Origin: Dehalococcoidia bacterium
GTDB lineage: Bacteria > Chloroflexota > Dehalococcoidia > DSTF01 > JALHUB01
NCBI GenBank assembly: GCA_030018455.1
Contig: JASEFU010000001.1
Coordinates: 61,545-125,544 of the forward strand
Reading direction: 5' to 3'
DNA: 64,000 bases
This document shows positions 2,774 to 56,917 of this stretch, piece after piece. Under the pieces are notes generated by a model, which was not told the DNA's origin, ran no database searches, and saw nothing but the letters and a program-made list of their open reading frames with translations. The translations under genes were made by a program, and so were the position numbers. Every line of letters begins with the position of its first letter. The stretch's first letter is position 1.

Positions 2774-3134
2774 GGGGAGCGCATTTGGGACGGGGTCGGC
2801 ACACGGTTCCGGGGTTTCAAACTCTCGGCCTAGCGCGACGCTGTCAGGCGCGGGCCGCGGGATTCATCCCACAGAACCGTCCAGTCATCCATCGTCTCTA
2901 CCTCGGGCAACTCAGCCAAATCAGGGGGAGCCCGGAGGGCGATGTCCCTCTCCGGCGGGAGTCTGGACCCGCCTCCCGGCAAAGCAGGTGTGTCCCCCCG
3001 GCACTAACAAACGCCCCGCGGGTGGGCGGCGGGAAGATGGGCGCAAGTGTTCCGGCGATAACGCCAACGCCGTACAGGAACGCCACGCTTCATTCCTGGT
3101 CAACACCTTACATCCGCCTGGAAGAGCACCGGGA

Positions 3135-5918
3135 TTACACTTCGCCCCAGTTCTTGCCCAGCTTCACGTCCACCTTCAGCGGCACGTCCAGCTCCAGCGA
3201 CGCCGGCATGATCCGCAGCACCATCTCCCGCAGGTCGGTCATCTCCGAGGCCGGCCCTTCGAAGATCAGCTCGTCGTGCACCTGCAGCAGCATCTTCGAA
3301 CGCATCTTCCGCGCCTCGAGCTCCGCGTCCAGCCTGTCCATCGCCACTTTGATGATGTCGGCGGCGGTCCCCTGCACCGGCATGTTGATCGCGATGCGCT
3401 CGGCGGCGCCCCGCACCTGCGGGTTCGCCGAGTTGATCGCCGGGATGTAGCGCCGGCGCCCCATCATCGTCTCCGCGTACCCCTTCACCCGCGCGTCGCC
3501 TATCACCTCCTCGCGCCATTCCTTCACGCGCGCGTACTTCTCGAAATAGCGGTTGATGAACTCTGTCGCCTCCTCGCGCGATATCCCCTCGCGCTGCGAC
3601 AGCCCGAACCCCGTCAGCCCGTACAGCACGCCGAAGTTGAACACTTTCGCCCGCCTTCGCATCGTCGGCGTCACCTCCTCGATGGGAACGCCGAACACCT
3701 GCGACGCCGTCGCCGCGTGGATGTCCTCGTCCTGCCGGAACGCTTCCAGGAGGCCGGGGTCTTTGCACAGGTGCGCCAGGATGCGCAGCTCCACCTGTGA
3801 GTAGTCGGCGGCGAGCAAGTAGGGGTCCGGGCCTACGTCTCGAGCGATGAACGCGGCCCGGATCTGGCCCCCCAGTTCGCCCCGCACGGGGATGTTTTGC
3901 AGGTTCGGGTCGTTTGACGACAGCCGGCCTGTCGCCGTGATCGTCTGGTTGAACGTCGTGTGGATGCGGCCGGTGTTCGGGTTGATAAGCGCGGGCAGCG
4001 TGTCTATGTAAGTCGACTTCAGTTTCGTAAGCTGGCGGTACGTCAGGATCATGTCGATAACCGGATGGGCGTCCCGCAGCGCCTCGAGCACCATCGCGTC
4101 GGTTGCGTAGCCCTGCTGCCTCACCTTGCGCGGCTTCGGCAGCCCGATCTCCTCAAACAGCACCACCGAAAGCTGCTGCGGCGACCCGATGTTGAACTGG
4201 TGCCCGCAGGCCTCGTATATCTGCTGTTCCAGCGCGACAATCTGCGTCTCCAGTTGCTGCGACATCTCCCGCAAGACCGCCACATCGATCGCTACGCCTG
4301 CCAGCTCCATGCGCGTGAGCACCGGCACCAGCGGCATCTCAACTTCCGTGAAGAGGCTCCACAGGTTCTGTTCCTTCAGCTCCTTCTCGAGTAGCGCGCG
4401 CAGACGGAAAGTCACGTCGGCGTCGCCGCATGAGTAATCGGCGACGGCGCTCACAGGCGCCTGCGCCATCGAGAGCTGCTTCGGCCCGCGCCTGCCGAGG
4501 ATCTCCGTGATGTCCGTCATCTCGATGCCTAGGCGGCGCGACGCCAGCCACTTCAGGCTCAGCGATCCCTCGCCCGGCCGGTACGCCTCCGAGCCGCCGC
4601 CCTCGCCGAGCAGATACGCGGCGACCATCGTGTCAAACGCAAGGCCGCGGACAGTCACGCCGTGGTTCGCGAGCACCACCATGTCGTACTTGCCGTTGTG
4701 CGCCACTTTGGGGCGCAGCCCGTCCTCCAGCACCGGGCCGAGCTTCGACAGCACGGTCGAAAGCGGCAACTGCGGCCTGCCGCCGAGCTCCGCGATGTGC
4801 CCGACGGGGATGTAGAACGCCTCCGCGATGGAATCGGAGAACGACAGGCCGACGAGCCGCGCGCGCATGGCATGTATCTCGTCCGTCTCGGTGTCGAACG
4901 AGAAACTCTCGGCCTTGGACAACCGTTGCGCCAGCGAGTCCAGCTCCTCTTCGTCGTAGATGCAGTGGTATATCTTCTCCGGCGCTCCCAGCTCGACCGG
5001 GGGCGCCTTCTCTTCCAGGGGACGCACGTACTCGGGCAGTCTGCCCATCAGGGTCCGGAACTCCAGCTCGCGGAAGATCTCCAGGACCTTCTGTCGGTCG
5101 TACCCTTTAAGCTCGGCGGCCTTGAGATCGAGGCTGACGGGCACGTCCGTGCGGATCGTCGCCATCTCCTTACTGTGGCGCGCTTCTTCTTCGTGGGCGG
5201 CGAGCGTCTCCCGCAGCTTCGACGGCTCGACGAGATCGAGGTGCTCGTAGATTGTCTCGACGCTGCCGAACTGCTCGATGAGACGCACTGCCGTTTTCTC
5301 GCCGACGCCGGGCACGCCGGGAATGTTGTCCGACACGTCGCCCTTGAGCCCTTTGAAGTCCGGCATCTGCTGCGGATCGAAACCGTAGCGCTCGCGCGCC
5401 GACCTCTCGTCGTAGACGACGGTGTCGCGCTGGTAAGGGCGGAACATGAAGAGTTTTACGTTCGGCCGCAGAAGCTGGACCATGTCGCTGTCCAGGCTGA
5501 CGACGTACGTCTCGATGCCCTGCTCCGCAGCCTGTCGCGCGAGAGTCCCGAGCACGTCGTCGGCCTCGAAGCCCTCGACCTGAAAAATGGGGATGTTGAA
5601 CGCCTCGATCAGCTCCACACAGCGCGCGAACTGCTCGCGCAGGTCTTCGGGCGCACCGGGGCGCTGCGCTTTATACGTGTCGTCAAGCTCGTGTCGGAAC
5701 GTCGGCCCCTTGGGGTCAAGGGCGACGATTATGTGCGTTGGGCGAAGCTGTTCGAGCACGCTCAGCAGCGTGTTGGCGAGCCCGTATACCGCGGTCACCA
5801 CTTCGCCCGTCTTGCGCACGACCAGCGGCTCGCGGAAAGCGTGATACGCGCGGTGGATGATGCCGTGTCCGTCGAGGAGCGCCAGCAGGGGTTTGTCGGT
5901 ATCCGAAGCCATCGACAC
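3135..5918 (-). CDS. polA: DNA polymerase I
   Basis: 927 aa. N-terminal 5'-3' exonuclease region (LLLDGHGIIHRAYHAF), 3'-5' exo-like middle region, and C-terminal polymerase motifs (…RRRAKVFNFGVLYG…, …QVHDELIFE…). Confidence 0.95.
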   Translation of the reverse strand: MSMASDTDKPLLALLDGHGIIHRAYHAFREPLVVRKTGEVVTAVYGLANTLLSVLEQLRPTHIIVALDPKGPTFRHELDDTYKAQRPGAPEDLREQFARCVELIEAFNIPIFQVEGFEADDVLGTLARQAAEQGIETYVVSLDSDMVQLLRPNVKLFMFRPYQRDTVVYDERSARERYGFDPQQMPDFKGLKGDVSDNIPGVPGVGEKTAVRLIEQFGSVETIYEHLDLVEPSKLRETLAAHEEEARHSKEMATIRTDVPVSLDLKAAELKGYDRQKVLEIFRELEFRTLMGRLPEYVRPLEEKAPPVELGAPEKIYHCIYDEEELDSLAQRLSKAESFSFDTETDEIHAMRARLVGLSFSDSIAEAFYIPVGHIAELGGRPQLPLSTVLSKLGPVLEDGLRPKVAHNGKYDMVVLANHGVTVRGLAFDTMVAAYLLGEGGGSEAYRPGEGSLSLKWLASRRLGIEMTDITEILGRRGPKQLSMAQAPVSAVADYSCGDADVTFRLRALLEKELKEQNLWSLFTEVEMPLVPVLTRMELAGVAIDVAVLREMSQQLETQIVALEQQIYEACGHQFNIGSPQQLSVVLFEEIGLPKPRKVRQQGYATDAMVLEALRDAHPVIDMILTYRQLTKLKSTYIDTLPALINPNTGRIHTTFNQTITATGRLSSNDPNLQNIPVRGELGGQIRAAFIARDVGPDPYLLAADYSQVELRILAHLCKDPGLLEAFRQDEDIHAATASQVFGVPIEEVTPTMRRRAKVFNFGVLYGLTGFGLSQREGISREEATEFINRYFEKYARVKEWREEVIGDARVKGYAETMMGRRRYIPAINSANPQVRGAAERIAINMPVQGTAADIIKVAMDRLDAELEARKMRSKMLLQVHDELIFEGPASEMTDLREMVLRIMPASLELDVPLKVDVKLGKNWGEV

Positions 5919-7748: not shown

Positions 7749-7825
7749 TGGTAGCGCATGCGGGATTCGAACCCGCGATCTCCGCCTTGAGAGGGCGGTG
7801 TCCTGGGCCGCTAGACGAATGCGCC
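7749..7825 (-). tRNA. tRNA-Glu (anticodon CUC)
   Basis: rc = GGCGCATTCGTCTAGCGGCCCAGGACACCGCCCTCTCAAGGCGGAGATCGCGGGTTCGAATCCCGCATGCGCTACCA. Cloverleaf with tRNA-Glu-typical D-arm (GUCUAGCGGCCCAGGAC), anticodon loop CUCUCAA, encoded CCA. First acceptor pair is G1·U72. Confidence 0.85.
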
Positions 7826-39131: not shown

Positions 39132-39407
39132 CGCGGCCGTGCACCCGCTGTCGATCTGGCCCGCAGGCTTCACACCGCTCGCTAGCTCAAACCCGGTTGC
39201 CCTGCGGCACCCGAAGACCGCTACTTACCGCTGCTTCCTTCCGGACCTGACGGGGTTCATAGGGTTTCGCTGCGTAGGACCAGGTCGTCAACACTGCGCT
39301 GCGGCGCTCAGTCCCGCGAACTTAAGACCTCGAGCGGGAGTTCAACCCCGCTATAGCGGCTTGCGGGTTCAGGGCACCGCTAGCTCCCCGTCTAGCACGA
39401 CCGCGCG
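39132..39407 (-). ncRNA. ffs: signal recognition particle RNA, long (Bacillus-type, Alu-domain-containing) form
   Basis: Minus-strand reading contains …GTGCTAGACGGGGAGCTAGCGGTGCCCTGAACC… (Alu-domain 5' region). It also has the universally conserved domain IV …CCCGTCAGGTCCGGAAGGAAGCAGCGGTAAG…GTGCCGCAGGG… The 5' CGCGGTCGTGC pairs with the 3' GCACGGCCGCG. Total length is about 275 nt. Ends are approximate (±10 nt). Confidence 0.85.
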
Positions 39408-49405: not shown

Positions 49406-51241
<1,836 letters not shown>

Positions 51242-51302
51242 TGACTCGATGGTAGCATAGAAGAAGACAGCTCTCAATTTGGACACTCGGAAAGGGGGAC
51301 TC

Positions 51303-51860
51303 GTGGAGCGCGCAAGCGAAGTATTGACGGCGGAGCACCGCGGCATCGAGCGGATGCTGCGGATTCTCGAAACGGCGGCGGCGAAGGCCGAGCGGGGCGA
51401 GAAGGTGTCGGTGGAAGTCTTCTCCGACGCCATCGACTTCATCAGGGGCTTCGCCGACGGCTGCCACCACGCGAAGGAGGAGAAGACGCTATTCCCCCTG
51501 CTGGAGCAGCGCGGGATACCGCGGCAGGGGCCTATCGGAGTGATGCTGTCGGAGCACGAAGCAGGACGGCGCTACGTGGCGCAGATAGCGGCGTCGCTGG
51601 AGGGCTACGCCCGCGGCGATGCGGCGGCCACGCGCACGCTCACCGAAAACGCGCGTGAGTACGTGGCGCTTCTCCGCCAGCACATCACGAAGGAAGACAA
51701 CGTCCTCTTCCCCATGAGCGACCGCGTCCTCACCGAAGACGACCAGAAGGGCCTGGTGGAGCGGTTCGAGGAGATCGAGCGGGAAGAGATCGGCGAGGGC
51801 GTCCACGAGCGGTACCACGGCATGCTCGACCGCCTGGAGCGCGAGATGGGTATCGTCTAG
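51303..51860 (+). CDS. hemerythrin HHE cation-binding-domain protein
   Basis: GTG start after AAGGGGGA. …[12 protein letters not shown]…, …[12 protein letters not shown]…, …MLSEHEAG…, …[11 protein letters not shown]… (His/Glu di-iron ligand pattern). Confidence 0.7.
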
Positions 51861-51861
51861 C

Positions 51862-52383
51862 GTGGCGGAGCCGCCATCAATGGACTCCTACGTCATTACG
51901 GAAGTGGGAGAAGGCGACGCCGATCTGCTGGCCTCGCTCATCCGTGAAGCCTTCGCTACCGTCGCGACGGAACTGGGACTAACACCCGAGAACGCCCCGA
52001 GGCACCCGTCGAACTGCACGCCGGAGTGGGTGCGCGCTGCGTTTGCGAAGGGCATCAGGCACTTCGTGCTCGAGACGCCAAACGGCCCGGCGGGCTGCGT
52101 CGCGCTGGAACAGGCCGATTCCGAAGTCTGCTACGTGGAGCGTCTGGCAGTGCTGCCCGCGCACCGTCGCAGCGGCTTCGGCGAGGCGCTGGTGGACTAC
52201 GCCGTGGGCAGGGCGCGCGAATGCGGGGCGCGCCGCGTCGAGCTGGGGATGGTCGCCGCTCAAACGGGGCTGCGGGAGTGGTACGAGAAGCTGGGATTCT
52301 CGCTGACATCGATCGTGCAGTTTGAGGGCGCCCCGTTTGAGGTGGCGTTCATGCGGAAGTACCTCGAAGGAGGCGACGGCTAG
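51862..52383 (+). CDS. GNAT-family N-acetyltransferase
   Basis: …CYVERLAVLPAHRRSGFGEALVDYAVGRARECGARRVELG… (acetyl-CoA-binding motif A, R-x-x-G-x-G/A). The ATG at 51880 is an alternative start. Confidence 0.75.
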   Translation: MAEPPSMDSYVITEVGEGDADLLASLIREAFATVATELGLTPENAPRHPSNCTPEWVRAAFAKGIRHFVLETPNGPAGCVALEQADSEVCYVERLAVLPAHRRSGFGEALVDYAVGRARECGARRVELGMVAAQTGLREWYEKLGFSLTSIVQFEGAPFEVAFMRKYLEGGDG

Positions 52384-52542
52384 GGCACACGGCGGCGGCG
52401 ACTGCTCAGGGCCAGCGGGTGCACGTACTTCCTCCGCGGCGCACGCAACCTGTACTACGATGCCCCGGGCGTCACCACAGCCGAGGCAGAAGAGATCAGC
52501 AACGAAACGAACGCTCCCCTGACTTACACCGCCGAGCCACTG

Positions 52543-53295
52543 GTGCAGGACCCGACCGATTGGGACGGCGACGGGGTCGCCGACGGCGCCGACAACTGCC
52601 CTTATGTCTACAACCCGGCCCAGACGAACACCGACGCCGAAACCATTGACAACGGCCCGGTCGTGGTCGGCGACGATGTCACGGCGCCTTACGGCGACGC
52701 TCTGGGCGACGCGTGCGACGACGATGACGACAACGATTGGCTTCTTGACAGCGGTGAGGTAGCTGCGGGCACGGACCCGCTCGATCAGGACACTGACGGC
52801 GACCGCGTGCTCGACGGCGCGGAAGTCCTCCTCGGCTCCGACCCGCTTGATCCGGGCAGCCGCCCGTCGTGCACGGGCATCGTCGATGCCGACAAGGACT
52901 GCCTGCCGGCGGACGTGGAAGCGCTGTTCGGCTCGTCCGACGTCGCCAGGGACAGCGACGCCGACGGCATCACCGACAGCGTGGAGGTGAAGGGCTGGGG
53001 CACGTCTCCCGTCGCGGGGGACAGCGACGGCGACGCGTGCGACGACGACAAAGAGATCGCCGACGTGAACGGCGATGCGGTGGCGAACAGTCTCGACTAC
53101 GTGCGGGTGGCCCAGCGCGTCTTCGGAGTGCAGGACGACGACCCGGACGACGGCAACCCCGTGCCTGACCCCGACATGCAGGTAAGCCCTGCCTTCGACG
53201 TCAACAAAGACGGGGTGATGAGTTCACTCGACTCGACCCTCGTGGGTCTAAACTCCAACCTCGTGGAAAACACGGGAAAATGCAACTGCAACTAG
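52543..53295 (+). CDS. thrombospondin type-3 repeat and dockerin-like Ca-binding repeat protein with no signal peptide
   Basis: DWDGDGVADGADNCPYVYNPAQTNTD (TSP3 DxDxDGxxDxxDNCP motif) repeated in variants. C-terminal pair DVNGDAVANSLDYVRVAQRVF / DVNKDGVMSSLDSTLVGL fits the dockerin DxNxDGxxNSxD-helix repeat. First canonical start is GTG 52543. The frame is open back to the GNAT stop at 52381-52383. Confidence 0.6.
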   Translation: MQDPTDWDGDGVADGADNCPYVYNPAQTNTDAETIDNGPVVVGDDVTAPYGDALGDACDDDDDNDWLLDSGEVAAGTDPLDQDTDGDRVLDGAEVLLGSDPLDPGSRPSCTGIVDADKDCLPADVEALFGSSDVARDSDADGITDSVEVKGWGTSPVAGDSDGDACDDDKEIADVNGDAVANSLDYVRVAQRVFGVQDDDPDDGNPVPDPDMQVSPAFDVNKDGVMSSLDSTLVGLNSNLVENTGKCNCN

Positions 53296-53318
53296 GCCTT
53301 TGCAGCGCGGCGTCAACA

Positions 53319-53347
53319 GAGAGGGCCTCCCTTCGGGAGACCCTCTC
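53319..53347. terminator. bidirectional terminator-like hairpin between convergent genes
   Basis: GAGAGGGCCTCCC-TTCG-GGAGACCCTCTC (about 12-bp stem, one mismatch, TTCG loop) in the 72-nt gap between the dockerin-protein gene (+) and oppF (-). No strong U-tract. Confidence 0.4.
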
Positions 53348-53367
53348 AACTTCGTCACTATCAGCGG

Positions 53368-54387
53368 CTAGATGCGGTGGCAGGCTACCCAGTGGTCGCG
53401 CGAAAGCTCGCGCCACACCGGCACGTGCTCGCGGCACTCCGTCGTCACCAGCGGGCAGCGCGTGTGGAAAACGCAGCCCGACGGCGGGAACAGGGGGCTG
53501 GGCACGTCGCCGCTGAGGATGATGCGCTCCCGCTTCGCCTCCACGACCGGGTCCGGTATGGGCACCGCCGAGAGCAGCGCCTTCGTGTAGGGGTGAAGCG
53601 GGTTCTCGTACAGCTCCACCCTGTCCGATAGCTCCATCAGCTTGCCCAGGTACATCACCGCCACGCGGTCGCTTATGTGCCGCACTACCGACAGGTCGTG
53701 GGCGATGAACAGATAAGTGAGGTCGAACCTCTCCTGCAGGTCCTCCAGCAGGTTGATGATCTGCGCCTGAATCGACACGTCGAGTGCCGAGACCGGCTCA
53801 TCGCAGACGATGAAGTCGGGCTCCACCGCCAGCGCGCGCGCCACGCCGATGCGCTGTCGCTGCCCGCCGCTGAACTCGTGAGGGTAGCGGCTGGCGTAAT
53901 ACGGGTTCAGACCGACGATCTGCATCAGCTCCTGCACACGCTCGCGCCGCTGCTTCCCCTTGAACAGGTTGTGGATCACAAGCGGCTCGCCGATGATGCT
54001 CCCCACGCTCATGCGCGGGTTGAGCGAGGCGTAGGGGTCCTGAAAGATCATCTGCATGCGGCGGCGGAAGCCGCGCAGCTCGCCGCCCTTGACCTTCGTG
54101 AGGTCTCTGCCGCCGAAGAGTACTTCGCCGCTTGTCGGCCGGTACAGTTGCAGGATGGCGCGGCCGGTCGTCGACTTGCCGCAGCCGCTCTCACCCACCA
54201 GGCCGAGGGTCTCCCCCTTGCGAATGAAGAAGGAAATGCCGTCGACGGCCTTGACGTCCGCTATCTTGCGCTGAAAGATGATCCCCGAAGTCACGGGAAA
54301 ATACATCTTCAGGTCGGTCACGCTGATAAGGACGTTGTCTCCGCCGAGCTGTCTCTCGGCGTCGGCGATGCGTTGTTCGGTAGTCAT
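53368..54387 (-). CDS. oppF: oligopeptide/dipeptide ABC transporter ATP-binding protein (OppF-like)
   Basis: …[13 protein letters not shown]… (Walker A), …[15 protein letters not shown]… (signature), …[11 protein letters not shown]… (Walker B), and a C-terminal oligopeptide-ABC tail with Cys cluster. ATG overlaps the oppD stop (ATGA). Confidence 0.85.
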
Positions 54388-55376
54388 GCGCTCACGGCCT
54401 TTCCAACGGTTGGCATCACCCAGCAGGCGGCGTAATGCTTCTCGCCGCCGAGCATCAGCGGCGGCTCCTCGACCTTGCACCGCTCTATCCGGTACTCGCA
54501 CCGCGGATAGAAGCTGCAGCCTTCGGGCATGTGTATGAGATCGGGCGGGAAGCCCTCGATAGGTTCAAGCTTGTCCTTCCGCACCTGGTCGAGCCGGGGC
54601 ACCGACTTCAGCAGACCGATCGTGTACGGGTGCCGGGGGTTGCCGTACACTTCGCGCGAAGTCGACGACTCGACGATCTTGCCCGCGTACATGACGTTCA
54701 CCCGCTGAGCGTACCTCGCTATGACGCCCAGGTTGTGCGTGATGATGATGACGGCTGTCCCGAACTCACGGCTCAGGCGCGCCATGATCTCCAGGATTTG
54801 CGCTTGAATCGTGACGTCGAGAGCGGTTGTCGGCTCATCGGCCAGCAGGAGCTTGGGGTTGCAGGAGAGGGCCATCGCGATCATGACGCGCTGTCGCATC
54901 CCTCCTGAGAACTGGTGCGGGTAGTCTTTGATGCGGGCGGCGGCGGAGGGGATACCGACCATCTCCAGCAGCTCGACCGCCCGCCTGACGGCGCTCGAGC
55001 GGTCCATCCGCATGTGCAGCTCGAGCGACTCCGTGAGCTGGCGCCCGATGGTAAGGACGGGATTGAGGGAGGTCATCGGCTCCTGGAAGATCATGGCGAT
55101 TCGGTTGCCCCGGATGTGCCTGATCTCGTCCTCGTCGACCTTGAGGAGGTTCTCGCCTTCGAACCAGATTTCGCCGTCGACGATCTTGCCGGGAGGATTG
55201 GGGATGAGGCGCAGGAGCGAGAGGGCGCTGACGCTCTTGCCGCAGCCGCTCTCGCCCACGAGACCTATCGTCTCGCCCTCCTCCACATCGTAGTCGATCC
55301 CGTCAACCGCCTTCACCACGCCGTCGTCAGTATAAAAGTAAGTGCGAAGGTTCTTCACCTCTAACAGGGTTCCCAT
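54384..55376 (-). CDS. oppD: oligopeptide/dipeptide ABC transporter ATP-binding protein (OppD-like)
   Basis: …[13 protein letters not shown]…, …[15 protein letters not shown]…, …[11 protein letters not shown]…; start at the internal ATG 55376 ([10 protein letters not shown]…). Confidence 0.85.
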
Positions 55377-55639: not shown

Positions 55640-55882
55640 CACTCATATGATACTTTACTGATTATGCTTCGCGCCAGACGGCGCCGACGACGCACGAAGC
55701 GATCAACCGGAATCGCGCATCGTCCCGGTTCGGCAAGTTATCATGCTTCAGTTGGACAGTCAAGCCGGAGGCTCGTGTTGACCAAGTATCGGCCGCAATC
55801 CATAATAGTCGATGGAACGTACTACTTCCAGCCCCGATGGCACGGCGCGGGTCCGCGGACTGCCATCGGTATTTCTGTGCTT
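55640..55882 (+). promoter_or_regulatory. pheST leader with terminator/antiterminator-type hairpin, a candidate T-box (tRNA-Phe-sensing) attenuator
   Basis: 243-nt untranslated region. Near-perfect inverted repeat CCGATGGCA-cggcgcgggtccgcggac-TGCCATCGG followed by TATTTCTGTGCTT immediately before the pheS ATG. The 5' arm contains GATGGCACGGCGCGG, resembling the T-box core GGUGGNACCGCGG. UUC triplets are present upstream (GCUUCAG). Not verified. Confidence 0.35.
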
Positions 55883-56917
55883 ATGACCGCCGATCTCAGC
55901 GATATCGAAGCCCAGGCGAGACGCGATCTCGCCGCCGCCCAGGACGCGGAGGCGCTCGACGCCTGGCGCGTCGCCTACCTCGGGCGCAAGGGGCGCCTCA
56001 CGCAGGTACTGCGCAGCCTCGGCACGCTCCCCCTCGAAGAACGGCGTGCCCTGGGAGCGGCCGCCAACCGTCTGAAGGAGGCGCTGGAGCGGGCGCTCGC
56101 GGCGAAAGAAGAAGAGATTGAGGCCCGGAAGCTCGCCGTGATCGAGAAGGGCAGGATCGACGTCACGCTGCCCGGACGCCCCAAACCCGTGGGCCGCCTT
56201 CATCCCGTAACCCGCACCCTGCGCGACGTCCTCGAAGCCTTCGTCTCGATGGGGTTCTCCATCGTCGAAGGACCTGAGATCGAGCTCGATTACTACAACT
56301 TCGAGGCGCTCCGCATCCCCAAGGACCATCCGGCGCGGGACACCATGGACACCCTCTATGTCGATATCCGCCGTGATGGCGAATACGAGATCGTCATGAG
56401 GACTCACACCTCGCCTAACCAGGTGCGGGTGATGGAGAAAACGCAACCTCCCATCCGCATCGTCTCACCCGGGCGCTGTTACCGGCACGAGGCGACAGAC
56501 CCCACGCACGAGTGGATGCAGACGCAGATCGAGGTCCTTGCCGTCGACGAGGGGATAAGCATGGGCGACCTCAAGGGCACCCTGTTCGAGTTCGCCAAGC
56601 GCATCTTCGGGCAGGAGCGCCGCGTCCGCTTCCGCTGCGACTACTTTCCGTTCGTCGAGCCGGGCGCGGACATGGCGATAGATTGCGTCATCTGCGGCGG
56701 CGAGGGATGCCGCACCTGCGGCTACGAAGGCTGGATCGAGATTATGGGGGCGGGCATGGTCCACCCCGAGATCCTCGCCAACATGGGCTACGACACGGAA
56801 CGCTATACCGGTTTCGCCGCCGGCATGGGCATCGAGCGCATCGCTATGCTGCGCTACGGCATCGAAGACATACGTCTCTTCTACGCCAACGACCTGCGCT
56901 TTCTGAAGCAGTTCTGA
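55883..56917 (+). CDS. pheS: phenylalanine--tRNA ligase alpha subunit
   Basis: Class II aaRS motifs (…FRCDYFPFVEPGADMAIDC…, …GAGMVHPEILANMGYD…, …GFAAGMGIERIAMLRYGI…). Start at the internal ATG 55883 (MTADLSDIEAQ…). Confidence 0.95.
   Translation: MTADLSDIEAQARRDLAAAQDAEALDAWRVAYLGRKGRLTQVLRSLGTLPLEERRALGAAANRLKEALERALAAKEEEIEARKLAVIEKGRIDVTLPGRPKPVGRLHPVTRTLRDVLEAFVSMGFSIVEGPEIELDYYNFEALRIPKDHPARDTMDTLYVDIRRDGEYEIVMRTHTSPNQVRVMEKTQPPIRIVSPGRCYRHEATDPTHEWMQTQIEVLAVDEGISMGDLKGTLFEFAKRIFGQERRVRFRCDYFPFVEPGADMAIDCVICGGEGCRTCGYEGWIEIMGAGMVHPEILANMGYDTERYTGFAAGMGIERIAMLRYGIEDIRLFYANDLRFLKQF

Follow-up and report, generated by a model that had tools for sequence, protein, structure and literature searches.

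Thrombospondin type-3 (TSP3) repeats are known from extracellular adhesion and dockerins from protein-protein docking; both bind calcium, and cysteines and calcium sites of their kind are typical of extracellular proteins. The type-3 repeats of thrombospondins and COMP (PF02412) and the bacterial TSP3 repeats (PF18884) share the pattern DxDxDGxxDxxDNCPxxxNxxQxNxD...GDxCDxDDDND, with paired cysteines and acidic calcium ligands. Type I dockerins (PF00404), such as those of C. thermocellum Xyn10B and Cel48S (PDB 1ohz and 2mte), consist of two tandem 12-residue calcium loops, each followed by a helix, at the C-terminus of secreted cellulosomal enzymes. TSP3 and dockerin repeats occur together in giant surface proteins of Omnitrophota (bioRxiv 10.1101/2023.11.21.568195), and we found no papers on a TSP3-dockerin module in Dehalococcoidia. 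Here we analyse a 250-codon open reading frame (ORF) encoding TSP3 repeats and a dockerin, which lies between a GNAT N-acetyltransferase gene and oppF in a 64,000-nucleotide stretch of contig JASEFU010000001.1 from a Dehalococcoidia bacterium (hereafter the window). Our analysis indicates, with a probability of roughly 0.8, that this ORF is a 5′-truncated relic, what remains of the 3′ end of a gene that encoded a secreted, probably cell-surface, protein.

The ORF has presented an apparent paradox, as it encodes an extracellular module without an export signal. A first-pass annotation of the window had recognised TSP3 repeats and a two-loop dockerin, described such modules as normally extracellular, and pointed out that the protein lacks a signal peptide, that its frame has no stop as far back as that of GNAT, and that its GTG is the first canonical start and has no convincing Shine-Dalgarno (SD) sequence. 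These observations are all borne out by our results. There is no signal peptide in the ORF, and no space for one ahead of it, because the gap between the GNAT stop and the GTG is just 159 nt. Starting at 52384, immediately behind the GNAT TAG, the frame runs without a stop up to the TAG at 53296-53298; the ORF listing has no ATG, GTG or TTG in it between the GNAT stop and 52543, and no GGAGG-type SD sequence precedes the GTG. The explanation that had been offered, unconventional translation or non-classical secretion, is not upheld, since homologues of the protein have signal peptides and large N-terminal domains (N-domains), and the sequence ahead of the GTG encodes the tail of such a domain.

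Several results identify this upstream stretch. Read in the ORF frame, the 159 nt have a G+C content at third codon positions (GC3) of 0.79, which is of the coding type, and the encoded peptide GCTYFLRGARNLYYDAPGVTTAEAEEISNETNAPLTYTAEPL aligns to residues 261-313 of the 520-aa homologue P0041 (BLAST E 3.6e-10) and also to the starts of the homologues P0022 and P0025. A profile of 53 N-domain family tails, from which these three proteins had been left out, was compared with 1080 six-frame peptides of the window. Its sole match was the peptide encoded at 52414-52539 (E 2.4e-9), in the same frame as the ORF and upstream of every canonical start codon. The match spans positions 33-74 of the 77 in the hidden Markov model, with an abrupt beginning at position 33. 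The remaining N-domain is not present within the window, where a tblastn search with residues 1-313 of P0041 matched residues 261-313 only, and neither is a second copy of the module. Because the upstream stretch is an N-domain tail whose remainder is absent from the window, the ORF represents the 3′ ~0.9 kb of a longer gene, and the 5′ ~1.3 kb of that gene, signal peptide included, is gone. It is this loss, rather than an unusual export route, that accounts for the missing signal peptide.

The intact ancestor would have carried a signal peptide, an uncharacterised N-domain of ~440 aa and a calcium-binding TSP3-dockerin module of ~240 aa, and would have been secreted, probably to the cell surface. 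What survives in the GNAT-oppF spacer would then be the last ~42 codons of the N-domain (from sGCTYF to YTAEP), the whole C-terminal module and a 3′ hairpin. The annotated GTG is probably merely the first start-like codon in the surviving frame, the sharing of that frame with GNAT is most likely a coincidence, and we infer that the fragment is non-functional. In these respects the locus resembles bacterial 5′-truncated pseudogenes that are mis-called as short ORFs. As in such pseudogenes, full-length relatives are matched over their 3′ part alone, the homology passes upstream of the first start codon and then ends abruptly, the segment is absent at the orthologous site of relatives, and the start codon, probably a chance one, lacks an SD sequence.

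The N-domain belongs to a large family (P0121-type), for which a search with the N-terminal part of P0041 gave 1349 matches with E ≤ 0.001 among 3533 candidates scored. Its members, ~450-530 aa long, are found in Dehalococcoidia, Thermoleophilia, Acidimicrobiia and Latescibacterota; the domain has no Pfam, NCBIfam or PDB match. By a crude test of hydrophobicity and charge, which was used for all signal-peptide counts given here, 80 of the 119 listed members (P0121-P0239) have a signal peptide. The tail motif of the family is exemplified by SCTSYLQSARTMYYGAPGMTVANAQTLFNDAAAPLTYTVAPY in P0121, and the endings past this motif vary, including a transmembrane helix with an RRR tail, a type IX secretion system (T9SS) sorting domain (P0233), a dockerin (P0173), and TSP3 repeats plus dockerin (P0041). 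Two known kinds of C-terminal anchor, the T9SS C-terminal domain and the transmembrane helix with a basic tail, therefore take the same position in this family as the module does in P0041 and in the window relic. The likeness is one of position, as the module has no sequence or fold relationship to these signals and contains no transmembrane segment.

Comparison with related genomes provides a second line of evidence. The comparison loci (L005-L009) were found through the GNAT protein, whose orthologues are 64-77% identical, and the ancestral gene order is lepA(-) GNAT(+) oppF(-) oppD(-). The stop codons of GNAT and oppF overlap or nearly abut in L006 and L007, and in L005 the two convergent genes are ~95 bp apart. 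In L008 the slot between them (2787-4091) is occupied by the gene of an unrelated YVTN-repeat protein of 434 aa, which has a signal peptide and ends in a transmembrane plus RRRR anchor. The GNAT-oppF spacer (window 52384-53367) is thus a variable slot, empty in L005-L007 and filled differently in L008 and in the window, and the ~1-kb TSP3-dockerin fragment is found in the window alone. Because GNAT and oppF are directly convergent in the relatives, and the GNAT genes there end normally, the ~1-kb segment is a lineage-specific insert of the 3′ end of a gene.

The left end of this insert may hold a second trace of past occupancy. The 28 nt at 52389-52416 align to the KRRRRVS* end and the spacer of the L008 slot gene, with an exact 11-mer, TCAGGGCCAGC, at a score reached by just 0.12% of 5000 random 141-nt segments; ten comparisons were made. 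The match is no more than suggestive of the remains of an earlier slot gene; if it is real, the slot holds the remains of two surface-protein genes. No terminal repeats like those of insertion sequences were found around the insert. The 7-bp sequence CGGCTAG, which stands at both insert borders (52377 and 53365), was considered as a target duplication and set aside as weak evidence, being mostly explained by the conserved end of oppF. The hemerythrin gene between lepA and GNAT is also found in the window alone, L007 and L008 having just 84-180 bp there, and this gene (51279-51860) is a second lineage-specific insertion beside the same GNAT gene.

The identification of the TSP3 and dockerin domains is sound. 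TSP3_bac (PF18884) scores 33.6 bits against a cut-off of 25, in three stretches, and Dockerin_1 (PF00404) scores 27.8 bits against a cut-off of 22.9, in two stretches, covering residues 226-287 when the frame is read as 303 aa. The eukaryote-type TSP_3 (PF02412), at 24.4 bits, falls slightly under its cut-off of 25. Two NCBIfam equivalogs that contain TSP3 repeats, MtsC and CglD, are far under theirs (36.8 versus 350 and 31.8 versus 400, respectively). Both dockerin loops, DVNGDAVANSLD (53062-53097) and DVNKDGVMSSLD (53197-53232), fit D-x-N-x-D-x(6)-D and are followed by predicted helices (183-193 and 228-236), and D185, D219 and D230 are invariant or near-invariant in the module family. A profile of this family matches COMP (4.9e-20), thrombospondin-2 (1.9e-15) and solved cellulosomal dockerins (5.6e-9 to 1e-5). 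Throughout an alignment of 47 modules the acidic calcium-ligand columns are invariant, one cysteine is kept in GDACD, and another is near-invariant within the last 1-5 residues; the window module has seven cysteines, the family-conserved ones (C58 and C247) included.

An AlphaFold2 model of 52543-53295, computed on the 47-module alignment (m4cb1247fdefc), has a mean predicted local distance difference test score (pLDDT) of 90.8 and a predicted template-modelling score (pTM) of 0.86, and predicts that the TSP3 repeats and the dockerin form a single compact body rather than beads on a string. Foldseek matched the model to the type-3 repeats of TSP-1, TSP-2 and COMP at E about 2e-4 and, weakly, to dockerins (E 0.1-0.3, target-normalised template-modelling score 0.6-0.67). 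With these dockerin chains the sequence-profile matches given above are significant. No solved structure spans the whole unit, the best query-normalised score to a PDB chain being 0.21. The module combines elements of two described systems and departs from both. Its repeats follow the thrombospondin pattern, but it has no C-terminal lectin-like domain as in animal thrombospondins, and a dockerin comes after the repeats instead. Its loops are very close to those of cellulosomal dockerins (DVNGDxxxNSxD), and in intact homologues it too is C-terminal on secreted enzymes. In contrast to cellulosomal dockerins, its inter-loop linker is long (33 aa), its dockerin is predicted to pack against the preceding TSP3 repeats, its host is a Dehalococcoidia metagenome-assembled genome rather than a cellulosome producer, and the window copy is without the rest of the protein and without a signal peptide.

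The module is a recurrent C-terminal unit of secreted proteins. Among 8000 candidates scored from a large protein collection, 880 relatives of the module were found with E ≤ 0.001. In these the ~240-aa unit stands at the C-terminus, often after a Pro/Thr linker, and the N-terminal domains are varied, comprising parallel beta-helix, carboxylesterase, papain-like peptidase, LamG, SGNH hydrolase, subtilase, metallophosphatase, PHB depolymerase and Kelch domains; no GNAT Pfam domain is on record among the listed homologues. A signal-peptide-like start was detected in 31 of the 120 listed matches, and most of the 31 have about 150-320 residues ahead of the first DNCP-type motif of their module. This does not apply to P0104, in which the signal peptide is followed by the module alone and the motif is at residue 58, or to five proteins in which no motif was found. 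The closest relative is just 66% identical. An exhaustive profile search of 1.8 billion representatives was swamped by giant multi-TSP3 proteins and gave little on the composite module.

Several short homologues bear on whether the module can stand alone. P0104 and P0006 are short versions with a signal peptide and the module only. The genes of P0022, P0025 and P0041 all begin at contig edges. We considered the M-Y-Y/F starts of P0022 and P0025, near LYYDAPG of the window peptide, as those of a true short form and rejected them as artefacts, because homology in L001 continues to the very edge of the contig. We likewise rejected as standalone proteins P0003, which is cut by a contig edge and has a PT linker upstream, and P0016 and P0026, which are frameshift-split genes in error-prone assemblies. 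In the ERZ250395xx assemblies (L005 3706-5885 and 8018-10275; L004 3723-5783) many genes, including pheT, oppD/oppF and an ASST-TSP3-dockerin gene, are split into adjacent or overlapping ORFs in a pattern typical of frameshift errors, and several of the short database homologues are artefacts because of this splitting. L005 also has a TSP3-dockerin gene between oppD and pheS, about 3 kb from the GNAT-oppF slot. Among the short homologues examined only P0044 stands, as the sole one with a verified intact 5′ end and no signal peptide. It is encoded at L002 4923-5666 (also L003 1098-1763), directly after a radical-SAM/DUF5131 gene and next to genes for an integrase, GpA terminase, ParB and a methyltransferase, in a prophage-like region.

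The module may, in intact proteins, hold exoproteins and exoenzymes at the cell surface in a calcium-dependent manner. This role is suggested by the dockerin and TSP3 identity of the module and by its standing in the position that transmembrane anchors and T9SS sorting domains hold in the N-domain family. A cohesin-like protein might serve as its receptor, as might a glycan of the envelope; no cohesin was detected among the ten neighbouring window proteins scanned, all of which are housekeeping or transport proteins. Predicted to be one compact body, recurrent at the C-terminus of many kinds of secreted enzyme in uncultured Dehalococcoidia, and alternating with transmembrane anchors and T9SS sorting domains on one N-domain family, the TSP3-dockerin unit is a candidate device for surface retention in bacteria with a little-understood cell envelope. 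A recurrent composite C-terminal module that is interchangeable with transmembrane anchors and T9SS sorting domains on one N-domain family is mildly new. For the ORF itself, truncation gives an ordinary explanation for an extracellular module without an export signal, and on this interpretation the database entry for its identical twin (P0001, on a 718,989-bp metagenomic contig), which NCBI names 'dockerin type I domain-containing protein [Dehalococcoidia bacterium]', is a fragment wrongly called as a gene.

The preservation of the module weighs against this interpretation. In contrast to typical 5′-truncated pseudogenes, the fragment has no stop or frameshift across its 303 codons, every invariant or near-invariant column of the family is kept, and the window module comes 19th of 47 when scored against a profile from which it was left out, so that decay is undetectable. 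The truncation may be recent; alternatively, the fragment is somehow kept, perhaps under purifying selection. It also counts against truncation that two independent assemblies of another genome contain P0044, whose ORF likewise consists of the module and lacks a signal peptide, since orphan module copies may then be more than accidents, and that P0001 is on one contig only, with no second assembly to confirm the junction. The preserved module and P0044 agree with a functional orphan module, either a protein of 250 aa or slightly more, with translation starting at GTG 52543 or an upstream near-cognate codon, that acts in the cytoplasm or is exported independently of a signal peptide, or an intact cassette kept for recombination with other module-bearing genes. 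Further in its favour, the GC3 of the ORF is high (0.85), its transcription is probably shared with hemerythrin and GNAT, as no terminator-like site was found on the plus strand between those genes and the ORF, and short forms with a signal peptide and the module alone exist. We nevertheless consider an orphan module of this kind unlikely, since homology that runs upstream of all possible canonical starts is the mark of a truncated gene and not of a designed short one, the SD sequence is lacking, and seven cysteines with many extracellular-type calcium sites make folding in the cytoplasm improbable. In addition, P0044 is alone among homologues with a verified intact 5′ end in having no signal peptide. 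It is very unlikely that the leaderless copies in the window and P0044 are kept, because the unit tethers proteins to the surface across Dehalococcoidia, as silent 3′ cassettes or free competitors; were they so kept, the many exoprotein genes with this C-terminal anchor could have it swapped or repaired by recombination with such a cassette, and an expressed free module would compete for the docking site.

The truncation could also lie in the assembly rather than in the genome, through an internal deletion or a chimeric join near 52384-52416, with the complete gene present in the real genome. These genomes have multiple copies of the module, and repetitive sequence can lead assemblers astray; the junction is seen in no other assembly, and related long-read assemblies contain many errors. 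However, synteny is preserved to the left (lepA-GNAT) and to the right (oppF-oppD-tRNA-Leu-tRNA-Lys-pheS-pheT) within a single contig, and a chimera would lose it on one of the two flanks. The break is in the unique N-domain tail, outside the repeated module, the junction is not flanked by any pair of repeats able to cause a collapse, and composition is smooth across it, which together make an artefact distinctly unlikely. The first-pass annotation had taken signal peptides on orthologues as the sign of an assembly error here; the orthologues do have them, but a truncation in the genome is the likelier cause. It had also proposed readthrough of the TAG at 52381 or a fusion that would give a GNAT-TSP3-dockerin protein. 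The shared and open frame is what recommends this idea, although a frame is shared by chance one time in three, and the 11 codons past the TAG look like spacer or relic. GNAT orthologues have their C-termini within a few residues of the window stop and are never extended or fused, the end of oppF following at once in L006 and L007, and TAG is the stop codon of four neighbouring genes, namely GNAT, hemerythrin, oppF and the GNAT-adjacent TSP3-dockerin ORF. We rejected readthrough and fusion on the orthologue C-termini and the local use of TAG, and the listed module homologues, with no GNAT Pfam domain on record, point the same way; the probability of readthrough or fusion is close to nil.

Table 1. 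Features of the GNAT-oppF region of the window (positions count from the first base of the window)
Feature	Position	Strand	Evidence or remark
Hemerythrin (HHE cation-binding domain) gene	51303-51860	+	PF01814, 7.8e-25
GNAT N-acetyltransferase gene	51862-52383	+	PF00583, 2.5e-16; stop TAG 52381-52383
Possible relic of an earlier slot gene: last codons (RRRR tail) and 3′ spacer	52389-52416	+	tentative
Putative relic: last ~42 residues of the ~440-aa secreted N-domain	52414-52539	+	
Annotated TSP3-dockerin ORF, GTG start, 250 aa	52543-53298	+	stop TAG 53296-53298
Thrombospondin type-3 / bacterial TSP3 calcium-binding repeats, including DNCP...GDACDDDDDND	52549-53058	+	PF18884, PF02412
Dockerin type I-like module, two calcium loops each with a helix	53059-53244	+	PF00404
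G+C-rich hairpin between the convergent TSP3-dockerin ORF and oppF	53319-53347	.	fold -27.5 kcal/mol, z = -2.5
oppF-type oligopeptide ABC ATPase gene	53368-54501	-	81-86% identity to syntenic genes in L005-L008; right-hand insert border

The features of the region are listed in Table 1. The 3′ hairpin has a terminator-like look but is without a T-run. Hemerythrin and GNAT are ordinary genes, and the Pfam matches agree with the identities that the first-pass annotation had given them. The longest hemerythrin ORF begins at TTG 51279 in the ORF listing; GTG 51303, with GGAAAGGGGG just 5′ of it, is the likelier start. By comparison with its orthologues, GNAT likely starts at ATG 51880. A strong SD-like sequence, GAAGGAGG, lies within the last GNAT codons (52366-52373, encoding E-G-G), 8 nt 5′ of the TAG; it has no start codon at a usable distance and is probably incidental.

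Two neighbouring ORF calls are both probably over-long. The longest lepA ORF (49406-51442, minus strand) has an in-frame 5′ extension of ~70 codons that overlaps the start region of hemerythrin, with conserved LepA sequence starting at MDQSHIRNF, near 51235. The pheS ORF (55664-56917, plus strand) has ~90 extra N-terminal codons ahead of its first Pfam domain. Elsewhere in the window we identified a bacterial large signal recognition particle (SRP) RNA (39137-39400, minus strand, 195.7 bits) and five tRNAs, Glu-CTC, Gln-CTG, Glu-TTC, Leu-TAG and Lys-CTT, at 7749, 8782, 19891, 55464 and 55557. The genes around the SRP RNA and the tRNAs are housekeeping genes (SMC, infC, pheST, lepA and oppDF).

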